From an uncultured Acidobacteriota bacterium (lineage in GTDB: Bacteria; Acidobacteriota; Vicinamibacteria; Vicinamibacterales; 2-12-FULL-66-21): DNA of 64,000 nucleotides. Below, one piece after another: positions 14,608 through 17,726 of this stretch; within the stretch, counting starts at the first letter, position 1; every line of letters starts with the position of its first letter. Both the position numbers and the translations under genes were made by a program. The notes below the pieces were generated by a model. That model did not search any database. It had not been told where the DNA came from and saw nothing but the letters and a program-made list of their open reading frames with translations. Location of the stretch: positions 13,206 to 77,205 of the forward strand of contig CAVYTY010000029.1 of the NCBI GenBank assembly GCA_963771395.1, written 5' to 3'.

Positions 14608-14790
14608 GTTCTGAATAGCGCAGCGTTCAGCCGCGGCGGCTTCATCATCGCACGCCGTCGGCTGCAAACGGCCGATGCGCCCTCTATATCAGAAGCGCGG
14701 GCGAAGTGACCTTCATCGCCCCGATAGCCAATCTCGCACTGCCAGCAACCAGGACTCGGATGAAGCCGTCCCATGCAATCCAGAACGCGG

Positions 14791-15931
14791 TCAACCGACC
14801 CGCAGGCCCCGATCGAGCGCGAAGCATACCAACAGGATGCCGCACACCCCGAGCGTCACGACAATCCAAAAGATGACCGGCGACCAGATCCGGATGAAGT
14901 GTCGTCCCTCGGCAGCGTCCGCGCGGCTCTCGTACGATCGCATCGCCCCGGACGCCGCGTCGCCTAGACGCTGCCCGGCGTCGGCGCGCTGGCTCGCGGG
15001 CCATCTGTGGCCAGTTCGCGAGATGTACGACGGCGTATCGAGGACGGGTGCGTAGGTACTTCTCGAGGATGAGGTTCTCGGACCACGCGGCTCGAATGTC
15101 TCCCGCTTCCCACCGGTGATTCCGCTCCTGGACGTGCAGCAGTCCTTCGCTCATGTACTGGTCTTCGCGGCTCCGGCTGCGCGGTCTCTCGATCGGCGGC
15201 CGATCCTTCCAGAGCGTGAGCCGGTCCTGGCTGATGTTGAGGAGCGTCGCAGCATCGTAGCGCGACCGGAACCTCCCGGCCTCGGGATCGCTCGTCTCCA
15301 CGCCGAGGTGCACGGAGCGGACGAAGAGTGCAAAGAGGAGCGACACGGCGGCTGCCACGACGCCAATCCGTCGAAGCGATCCCGGGCGGAGCATCAACGG
15401 TCGAGCGCCGGGCGGATCGACGCCGACACTGAAGAGCAGCCCGCAGACGATTGCGGCCATGTTGAGGAAGACGTCCCGCATGTCGCCGACACGGCCGGGA
15501 ATGAACCACTGCAGCCACTCTTCGACCGTGCCGACGGCGATGCCCGCCAGCATCGGCAGCACGAACATCGAGGCGTCACCGCGCGGGCGCCAGACGCGGT
15601 AGAAGAGCAGCGCAATGACGCCGTACTCGACAAAGTGGACGCGTTCGACGGCGTCGACTTCGGCGATGCCCTGCGCGTTCCAGAGCGCGTAGACGGTCCC
15701 GAAGGCCAGGGCGAAGACGATGGCGCCGTACCTCAGCGTACGCCGATCCCGGATCCTCAGGAGGGCAACGACGATGGCCCCGCCAATCGCCAGGGCGACG
15801 GCGGTTCCGACGACCGTGGCGTACTGACCCGGGAACGTGGCCCGGATCCAGTCGCGGATGTCGCGGATGAAGGGCGTCGAGAGAATCACTGCGATCGACA
15901 GCGCCACGGCCACCGACAAGCGCACGAACAC
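14791..15931 (-). CDS. VanZ-like family membrane protein with extended C-terminal region; frame broken once
   Basis: GTG 15931. VERVHFVEYGVIALLFYR is VanZ-like. After ...SENLILEKY the listed ORF turns into Arg-rich junk. Removing one base at 15055-15059 (GTACC) gives YAPVLDTPSYISRTGHRWPASQ...WSPVIFWIVVTLGVCGILLVCFALDRGLRVG-stop (TGA 14793-14791). Confidence 0.7.
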
Positions 15932-15934
15932 TCC

Positions 15935-16094
15935 ACGGTTGTACCACAGCTGAGCTCGGGGACATCCAAGGTTGGGTGTCCCCGGGACCTACGGCTGAGC
16001 TCAGGGACATTCAACCTTGGGTGTCCCGGACCTACGGCTGGGCTCGGGGACATTCAACCTTGAGTGTCCCCGACCTCGGCTGTGGTACAACCGT
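15935..16094. repeat. composite structured element: 16-bp inverted repeat enclosing three tandem hairpin units of about 43-45 nt
   Basis: ACGGTTGTACCACAGC (15935-15950) is the reverse complement of GCTGTGGTACAACCGT (16079-16094). Between them are units 15951-15995, 15996-16038 and 16039-16080, each TGAGCTC-GGGGACA-loop-TGTCCCC-GGACCTACGGC. Confidence 0.85.
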
Positions 16095-16097
16095 CGC

Positions 16098-17726
16098 GTG
16101 AGCGTTTCCAGAGTCGTCACCGCCACCCTGGTCGCGACGGCCTCGGCCTCCGTCGCAGCCGGACTGGACCATTCCGCCCAGCAGCGGCCAGCCGGCCCGC
16201 GGATCGAGATCACGATCGCCGGGGATGCCCGCGCCGAGGCGACGACCGGGATGGTCTACGTCGCCATCAGTCGCGACAACAAGCGAACGCCGATCGAGCA
16301 GGCCGAGCCCACGGGCGCTCCTCTTTTTTCGATCCCCGTCGAGAGCCTGCAGGCCGGCACGCCGGTCGCCATCACCGCGGCCGAGCGCGGGCATCCGATC
16401 GCGAGCCTGAAGGACATCCCGGCCGGCGAATACTGGATGCAACCATTCGTCAATGTCTACACACGATTCGCGCGCGCCGACGGCAAGACCGTGTGGCTGC
16501 ACATGGATCAGTGGGAGGGCCAGAACTGGAAGCGGTCGCCGGGGAACATCTTTGGCGATCCGGTACGCATCCAGTTCGATCCCCGAACCACTTCACCGAT
16601 CCGCCTCGTCGCCGACAAGGTGATTCCGCCGATTCAGCCGCCGGCCGACACCGAGCTCGTCAAGCGCATCAAGATAGAGAGCCGAATCCTGACGAAGTGG
16701 TGGGGCCATCCGATCTATCTCGGCGCAACGGTCCTGCTGCCGAAGGACTACGACACCCGTCCCGATGTCCGCTATCCGGTGAACTACGAGCAGGGCCATT
16801 TCTCGCTGCGCGCGCCCGGCGGCTTCGGCACCGGCGGCGCCTTCGATACGTTCTGGCTCGCCTCGTCCACGCCGCGGATGATCTATGTGACGCTTCAGCA
16901 TCCATCGCCCTACTATGACGACTCGTATGGTGTGAACTCGGAGAACAACGGGCCGTTCGGCGACGCGATCCTCCAGGAGCTCATCCCCGCCATCGAGGAA
17001 GAATTCCGCGTCATCCGCGAGCCGTGGGCGCGCACGCTCTCCGGCGGATCGACCGGCGGATGGATCGCCGCCGCGCACCAGATCTTCTACCCGGATTTCT
17101 ACGGCCGCGCATTCGCCAGCTGCCCGGACTCGCTCGACTTCAGGTATCACCAGATCGTCGACATCTACAAGGACGCGAACGCGTACTTCGTCGACAAGGG
17201 CTGGATGCGCGTCGACCGCCCCAACCAGCAGCGGCCGGATGGCAACATCGAATCGATGATGAAGGACGAGAACCACTTCGAGCTCGTCGTCGGGGACAAG
17301 TCACGCTCGGGCGGCCAGTGGGACATCTGGGAGGCGACGTACTCACCCGTCGGTGCCGACGGCTACCCGAGACGCCTGTGGGACAAGAGCACCGGGCAGA
17401 TCGACAGGTCCGTCGCCGAGTCGTGGCGCAAGTACGACCTGCGCCACGTGCTCGAAACCAACTGGAGCACGCTCGGGCCGAAGGTCGCGCACAAGCTGAA
17501 CGTGTACGTCGGGGACATGGACTCGTACTATCTGAACAACGGCGTCGAGAAGCTGAACGAGTTTCTCGGCAAGGCCGACAACCCGAAGTTCACCGGCGAG
17601 ATCGTCTTCGAGCGTCGCGCCCCGCACTGCTGGGGCCCGCGCGGGGCGGACCTGATGACGAAGATGGTCCGGCACATCGAGAAATACGCGGCGCCGGGGG
17701 CGGATCTGAAGAGCTGGAGATACTGA
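16098..17726 (+). CDS. secreted esterase-family alpha/beta hydrolase (putative esterase/enterochelin-esterase-like)
   Basis: ORF 16017..17726 trimmed to GTG 16098 (VSVSRVVTATLVATASASVAAG signal). LSGGSTGGW is a GxSxG elbow. The upstream ORF codons are translated repeat DNA. Confidence 0.8.
   Translation: MSVSRVVTATLVATASASVAAGLDHSAQQRPAGPRIEITIAGDARAEATTGMVYVAISRDNKRTPIEQAEPTGAPLFSIPVESLQAGTPVAITAAERGHPIASLKDIPAGEYWMQPFVNVYTRFARADGKTVWLHMDQWEGQNWKRSPGNIFGDPVRIQFDPRTTSPIRLVADKVIPPIQPPADTELVKRIKIESRILTKWWGHPIYLGATVLLPKDYDTRPDVRYPVNYEQGHFSLRAPGGFGTGGAFDTFWLASSTPRMIYVTLQHPSPYYDDSYGVNSENNGPFGDAILQELIPAIEEEFRVIREPWARTLSGGSTGGWIAAAHQIFYPDFYGRAFASCPDSLDFRYHQIVDIYKDANAYFVDKGWMRVDRPNQQRPDGNIESMMKDENHFELVVGDKSRSGGQWDIWEATYSPVGADGYPRRLWDKSTGQIDRSVAESWRKYDLRHVLETNWSTLGPKVAHKLNVYVGDMDSYYLNNGVEKLNEFLGKADNPKFTGEIVFERRAPHCWGPRGADLMTKMVRHIEKYAAPGADLKSWRY

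Follow-up and report, generated by a model that had tools for sequence, protein, structure and literature searches.

The systems closest to the one reported here are the REP/BIME sequences of Enterobacteria and Pseudomonas, with their RAYT (TnpA-REP) transposases, and the REPIN-RAYT systems (PMC2817692, PMC3116915, PMC3479197), in which short palindromic units are dispersed and mostly extragenic. These units are clustered, reiterated in tandem, genus-specific and free of target-site duplications, and they lie on either side of a lone Y1/HUH transposase gene whose chromosomal position is conserved. REPs have also been found inside small palindromic targets and amplified in tandem together with flanking DNA, and Y1 transposases are present in Acidobacteria (Di Nocera et al., 2013, PMC3733652); the classes of Y1 transposases were treated by Quentin et al. 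(2018, PMC6006769).

Here we analyzed a window of 64,000 nucleotides, the whole stretch of DNA under study, from a genome designated G000 (assembly 7.16 Mb, 66% G+C, 82% complete). Between a gene for a VanZ-like membrane protein and a putative esterase gene, the window holds a structure that is a REP/BIME cluster of a REP-RAYT system. Its core family shares all of the REP/BIME and REPIN-RAYT features listed above, the flanking of a single transposase gene at a conserved locus being seen in genomes of the same genus. It differs from the described systems in several ways: the host belongs to an uncultured soil lineage of Acidobacteriota; the family is of modest size, at about 80 copies; swappable half-modules make up its core, a nearly perfect palindrome of 26 nt; no GT[AG]G abuts the stem on its 5' side, and GTAG ends a 15-nt 3' tail in one subfamily; and the cognate RAYT was not found in the 82%-complete assembly of G000. 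As with the GTAG-tagged REPs of PMC3733652, the units sit at the center of a palindrome; unlike the targets described there, this palindrome is a single-copy native region, putatively a promoter region, and not a repeated target family. The Acidobacteria TIRYT transposases of that study are flanked by terminal inverted repeats, not by REP hairpins.

Results

Organization of the VanZ/esterase spacer

The repeat array fills the spacer between the divergent VanZ and esterase genes, as the original prediction had proposed, and both start codons are backed by orthologue alignments. The features of the region, in window positions, are as follows.

14684..15931, minus strand: VanZ-like membrane protein gene, start GTG at 15931-15929 (Pfam PF04892, E = 2.5e-8)
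15935..15950: left arm of the inverted repeat, 16 bp; minus-strand reading TG-G-TACAAC, 6 nt, VanZ GTG; native spacer DNA with a putative promoter role
15951..15957, minus strand: REP tail of unit 1, minus-strand GAGCTCAGC, running into the left arm; the same tail is found after the core in about 11 units at 8 other loci
15958..15983: REP core of unit 1, 26-nt palindrome
15984..16002, minus strand: linker 1, formed by the tail of REP unit 2; minus-strand GAGCTCAGCCGTAGG plus 4 nt
16003..16028: REP core of unit 2, both outer bases mutated
16029..16045, minus strand: linker 2, formed by the tail of REP unit 3
16046..16071: REP core of unit 3, 1 mismatch against the search pattern
16072..16078, plus strand: degenerate inverted REP tail on the esterase side, seen in the sequence; the related genome G007 has an intact GAGCTCAGC here
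16079..16094: right arm of the inverted repeat; TG-G-TACAAC, hexamer at 16086-16091, then 6 nt and the esterase GTG; putative promoter role
16098..17726, plus strand: putative esterase gene, start GTG (Pfam PF00756, E = 3.6e-6); the original prediction had named it a secreted esterase

The position of the VanZ start is conserved in 8 genomes of the genus, and the esterase start is fixed by the conserved N-terminus of orthologues that are 68–87% identical. An ORF extension from TTG-16017 was rejected as an artifact; orthologue alignments support GTG 16098. The esterase start codon is GTG in the window's genome and ATG in all same-genus genomes compared (7/7), and this GTG makes the two divergent start codons mirror each other (CAC ... 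GTG), equidistant from the arms.

The two 16-nt arms, 15935–15950 and 16079–16094, proved to be exact reverse complements when checked on the sequence, and Tandem Repeats Finder recovered the predicted tandem repeats between them (15949–16082, period 43, 3.1 copies, 88% matches, score 194). The three units are arranged head-to-tail (core plus tail), with all tails on the minus strand and pointing at the VanZ gene. A 7-bp GGGGACA/TGTCCCC stem had been assigned to every unit; stems are indeed present, but the outer stem of unit 2 is only 6 bp long (GGGACA/TGTCCC), and the actual stems measure 12–13 bp. The 17–19-nt linkers between the cores are themselves repeated and form part of the repeat rather than unique spacers, so that the array is not a CRISPR array, and no target-site duplication is present at it. 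The 160-nt stretch is not a terminator at this spacer, and the array overlaps the upstream promoter DNA of both the VanZ and the esterase genes. On the CRISPR, target-site, terminator and promoter-overlap points the original prediction held.

The proposed shape of the element, a cloverleaf with a closing helix and three hairpins, did not withstand folding: it lies above the minimum-energy fold by 27 kcal/mol as RNA and by 18 kcal/mol as DNA. That fold is predicted to be a single hairpin of ~75 bp, with unit 1 paired to unit 3. As each unit is palindromic in its own right, the 160 nt constitute one large imperfect palindrome. The RNA fold energy is −133 kcal/mol for a 180-nt stretch (z = −13.8) and −127 kcal/mol for the 160 nt. 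As a background, 361 loci in G000 have a perfect inverted repeat of at least 16 bp with arms within 200 nt, where ~0.3 per genome would be expected randomly, because this genome is full of hairpin repeats. Its hairpin load includes at least four REP-type families plus hairpins with arms made of short-unit tandem arrays, and G000 tolerates long palindromes in unusual abundance.

The core belongs to a dispersed repeat family

A BLAST search of G000 with the 160-nt stretch returned 95 matches, all of them to the core, and none takes in the first ten arm bases (positions 1–10). A fuzzy search for the core in the same genome found 80 units in 42 clusters, with none in the reversed control, and the 26-nt core had no match in 100 shuffles. 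Fourteen of the clusters are singletons, 20 are doublets and 7 are triplets, and one array is larger; 28 of the 42 have at least two units. The array had been regarded as one composite element bounded by an inverted repeat; instead, its three repeats are individual copies from a REP family spread over the genome, and the arms are native and unique. It had also been considered that the repeat might have no other copies, which would leave a local duplication. The core has many other copies in G000, which speaks for a mobile repeat rather than for a regulator specific to this locus.

According to a crude home-made gene caller, 32 of the 42 clusters are intergenic, with the neighboring predicted genes co-directional in 15 cases, convergent in 12, and divergent in 5, and about five more are inside only doubtful 5' ORF extensions. 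Many clusters begin 3–12 nt past a stop codon. The unit period is 26 nt in most arrays, 43–45 nt at the VanZ/esterase array, and 66 nt at one other locus, and the cores are assembled from exchangeable half-modules. The longest array of the family (C16:24389-24596 of G000) consists of eight contiguous 26-nt units and ends at the start of the next predicted gene or shortly before it.

In one subfamily, the 3' tail directly after the core reads GAGCTCAGC and then (C/A)GTAGG. The GT[AG]G tetranucleotide is absent from the core family in the position directly 5' of the stem; GTAG occurs 9–10 nt past the 3' side of the core, within the tail GAGCTCAGCCGTAGG, at only ~14 units. The tail sequence of linker 1 is also found 3' of the core at C15:583177, C15:584151, and C9:53052. 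As to whether the GAGCTCAGC tail belongs to the repeat or to its target, we compared two orthologous empty/filled sites: at one locus the units of the other species lack the tail, and at the other the tail partly overlaps native CDS.

Two side observations concern the surroundings of the family. A sigma-54-promoter-like module (TGGCAC, 5 nt, TYGC) lies at most 60 nt from a GGGGACA-family cluster at 6 of the 48 sites where it occurs in G000, with ~0.05 expected by chance (C6:588623, C6:599515, C14:520033, C26:97199, C26:100339, and C15:222448), and at two loci it is sandwiched between two GGGGACA units. The module may be a promoter that is mobile, or one more kind of repeat module. Two spacers between convergent genes, L136–L147 (orthologues of C23:433181-433232) and L150–L154 (orthologues of C16:504208-504285), are empty in some species and hold 1–3 GGGGACA units in others, while unrelated tandem-heptamer hairpins (GGGAATC/GGATCC type) occupy them in G006 and G007. 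Different families of hairpin repeats have repeatedly landed in these two spacers.

The family is genus-specific and is linked to RAYT genes

With up to three mismatches allowed, the core was detected in 11 of 12 same-genus genomes (8–74 matches each) and had no match in the 28 genomes examined from other genera of the same family and order. Among species-representative genomes, the exact palindrome occurs only in uncultured soil Acidobacteriota MAGs, bar one labelled Actinomycetota.

At least six of the genomes (G001, G003, G004, G007, G009, and G011) carry, at a syntenic locus, a RAYT (Y1/HUH transposase) gene with core units on either side, and in G006 core units are found upstream of the RAYT only. 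The RAYTs with flanking units are 66–80% identical among themselves and ~45% identical to the protein at the syntenic locus of G000. That of G004 aligns to the E. coli TnpA-REP (4ER8_A, E = 1.9e-4), with PNHFHLV against PEHMHCI at the HUH motif and YVEANP against YIYINP around the Tyr. The best NCBIfam match of the RAYTs is NF047646 (REP-associated tyrosine transposase), with scores of 61–70 bits for the flanked RAYTs and 61–74 bits when the syntenic-locus paralogue of G000 is included, all below the 80-bit equivalog cut-off; another G000 paralogue, at 88.9 bits, is above it, and the G000 paralogues match Pfam Y1_Tnp above cut-off. We propose that the core repeats, a genus-specific family, are now or were formerly mobilized by a RAYT-type Y1/HUH transposase.

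G000 itself has three RAYT-like Y1 genes, each bracketed by a different dispersed palindrome family, and in its 82%-complete assembly no RAYT was found with the core family on both sides. The RAYT gene at C6:267154-267804 (L073:1429-2079) is bracketed by another palindrome family (AAGGTGGCTGGCACCTT), and a GGGGACA doublet lies ~190 nt upstream of it, on the upstream side only. Synteny of the RAYT locus holds across all genomes of the genus, the neighboring DNA being 72–90% identical. Set against the only ~45% identity of the RAYT itself, these flanks suggest that the resident RAYT of G000 seems to have been replaced in place.

The arms are native spacer sequence

The 16-bp arms occur only at the VanZ/esterase spacer in the 7.16-Mb assembly of G000. 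We recovered the orthologous spacer from eight relatives, and its length from start to start, its arms and its REP cores are as follows.

G019 (another genus): spacer 31 bp, no arms, 0 REP cores
G006 and G008: spacer 60 bp, left arm only (GTTGTAYCACA by the VanZ start), 0 REP cores
G009: spacer 44 bp, both arms, 0 REP cores
G002: spacer 80 bp, both arms, 1 REP core
G004 and G011: spacer 125–126 bp, both arms, 2 REP cores
G000 and G007: spacer 166–167 bp, both arms, 3 REP cores

Every same-genus genome compared has the left-arm part GTTGTAYCACA adjoining its VanZ start, the REP-free G006, G008, and G009 among them. The right arm is present in G002, G004, G007, G009, and G011 and absent from G006 and G008, which have a TAnnnT hexamer at its position, 8 nt ahead of the esterase ATG. 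Only a short center, resembling two fused tails, parts the arms in G009. The mirroring of the arms is 16/16 in G000 and 22/23 in both G007 and G011. The 16-bp arms are native spacer sequence and not the termini of an element.

In a maximum-likelihood tree of the two flanking genes, G009 is sister to the unit-bearing clade (bootstrap 77), and G006 and G008 fall outside. The units of G000 share substitutions that are missing from those of G007, and the two G000 linkers are nearly identical, which argues that the arrays grew at least partly by local duplication. Soil and rhizosphere metagenome contigs from several studies (public runs) hold the flanks of the locus; short-read contigs break at the array.

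The arms resemble two back-to-back promoters

Both arms read TG-G-TACAAC, and exactly 6 nt separate this motif from the start codon on each side. The TG-n-TACAAC motif, its distance from the start and the VanZ GTG are conserved in 8/8 genomes of the genus, no Shine-Dalgarno sequence precedes the VanZ or the esterase start codon, and the spacers of the REP-free relatives (31–60 bp) leave no room for a leader. For these reasons, the arms are probably two extended −10-like core promoters, placed back-to-back, of leaderless or near-leaderless mRNAs. Transcription of the array would place the end of a −127 kcal/mol hairpin 3 nt from a start codon without a ribosome-binding site, which argues that transcription starts downstream of the array. 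A consensus scan of the region found no sigma-70-type promoter, a terminator scan of it was also empty, and the TACAAC hexamer lacks the canonical final T of a −10 element. The lone RNA contig in public runs spans 15361–15585, inside the VanZ gene. We also considered the arms as a genome-wide operator motif and rejected this, as the 10-mer GTTGTACCAC occurs 10 times against ~8 expected by a rough base-composition estimate, with no regulon signal.

Warman et al. 2021 reportedly described bidirectional promoters that arise from DNA-sequence symmetry. The spacers of the REP-free relatives are like these promoters in that the divergent genes are 31–60 bp apart with mirror-symmetric −10-like hexamers. 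Unlike them, the symmetry in the window lies between two separate extended −10-like motifs, both putative promoters, that are now 128 bp apart.

Discussion

The locus is very probably a small BIME-like cluster of three REP units inside a native palindrome, with arms that are likely promoters and an array that acts as DNA. Each unit consists of the 26-nt palindromic core and a tail of ~15 nt ending in GTAG, and the native palindrome is made up of the mirror-image 5' contexts of two divergent genes, with the REP cluster at its center. A RAYT-mobilized REP unit probably entered the center of this palindromic promoter pair; the arms have GTGG where REP tails have GTAG, which, speculatively, may explain the choice of site. 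The unit would then have been amplified to 1–3 copies in different species by slippage or unequal exchange. Acting as DNA and lying in neither transcript, the array would have moved the core promoters from ~13–30 bp to 128 bp apart and replaced the upstream (−35/UP) DNA of both with repeat DNA, so that it would now occupy about −13 to −140 of each promoter. The likeliest effect would be passive, in that two formerly overlapping promoters were separated and their upstream DNA was swapped. No dedicated function of the array at the VanZ/esterase locus need be assumed.

A more active role is conceivable, in which the REP-derived array was co-opted as a spacer or insulator and kept to separate the divergent promoters or to supply −35-like, protein-binding or cruciform DNA, with the number of units tuning the expression of the VanZ-like and esterase genes. 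We consider this distinctly unlikely. It would agree with the retention of 1–3 units in five sister species, with the perfect or almost perfect mirroring of the arms in G000, G007, and G011, with the TTGAGT of the core, which matches a −35 element in part and precedes each TACAAC by 20 nt, and with the very stable cruciform that the DNA is predicted to be able to form (−62 kcal/mol). However, G009, G006, and G008 have the same gene pair with zero units, the same units follow stop codons or sit between convergent genes at most other loci, and a spacer of 20 nt is poor for a −35 element. The case for a dedicated cis-regulatory element of the gene pair, either the operator array of a regulator or a three-hairpin RNA leader of riboswitch-like type, is very improbable: although the position is that of a divergent promoter and the predicted structure is extremely stable (z = −13.8), the unit is dispersed over 42 unrelated loci and varies from 0 to 3 copies among species at this one. 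Rfam, searched at a permissive E-value, returned only microRNA-precursor look-alikes far below gathering scores, as is usual for any long hairpin, and a transcribed hairpin of −127 kcal/mol placed 3 nt before a start without a Shine-Dalgarno sequence would be expected to block translation.

What the eye meets at the locus, a perfect and terminal-looking inverted repeat around repetitive DNA, would also suit a MITE or a small composite transposon with 16-bp inverted-repeat termini. This is extremely unlikely and is already contradicted by the arms themselves, which exist nowhere else in the 7.16-Mb assembly, stand without an insert in G009 and are reduced to the left arm alone in G006 and G008; moreover, there is no target-site duplication, and the other BLAST matches of the 160-nt stretch never cover positions 1–10.

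Returning to the REP cluster inside a native palindrome, a tentative and rather unlikely extension would account for the symmetry of the arms as well. A template switch templated by a REP hairpin may have mirrored the VanZ core promoter and start context onto the esterase side, replacing an ancestral TAnnnT promoter that G006 and G008 would still have, and keeping the arms identical; G009 would then represent a secondary loss of the core that left fused tails. If this were true, promoters would be duplicated and turned over through the action of REP hairpins, and the natural 0–3-unit series would provide a ready test of how overlapping bidirectional promoters are tuned by repeat insertions.

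The finding opens no new element class or mechanism. It adds an undescribed REP family with a RAYT link to a poorly studied soil phylum, and it illustrates how a striking 'composite' structure may turn out to consist of a native palindrome, probably a pair of promoters, plus a selfish repeat array. With 0, 1, 2, and 3 units across sister species, the locus offers a clean natural experiment on REP insertions at divergent promoters, in a setting where the genes appear to start a few bases from their promoters.
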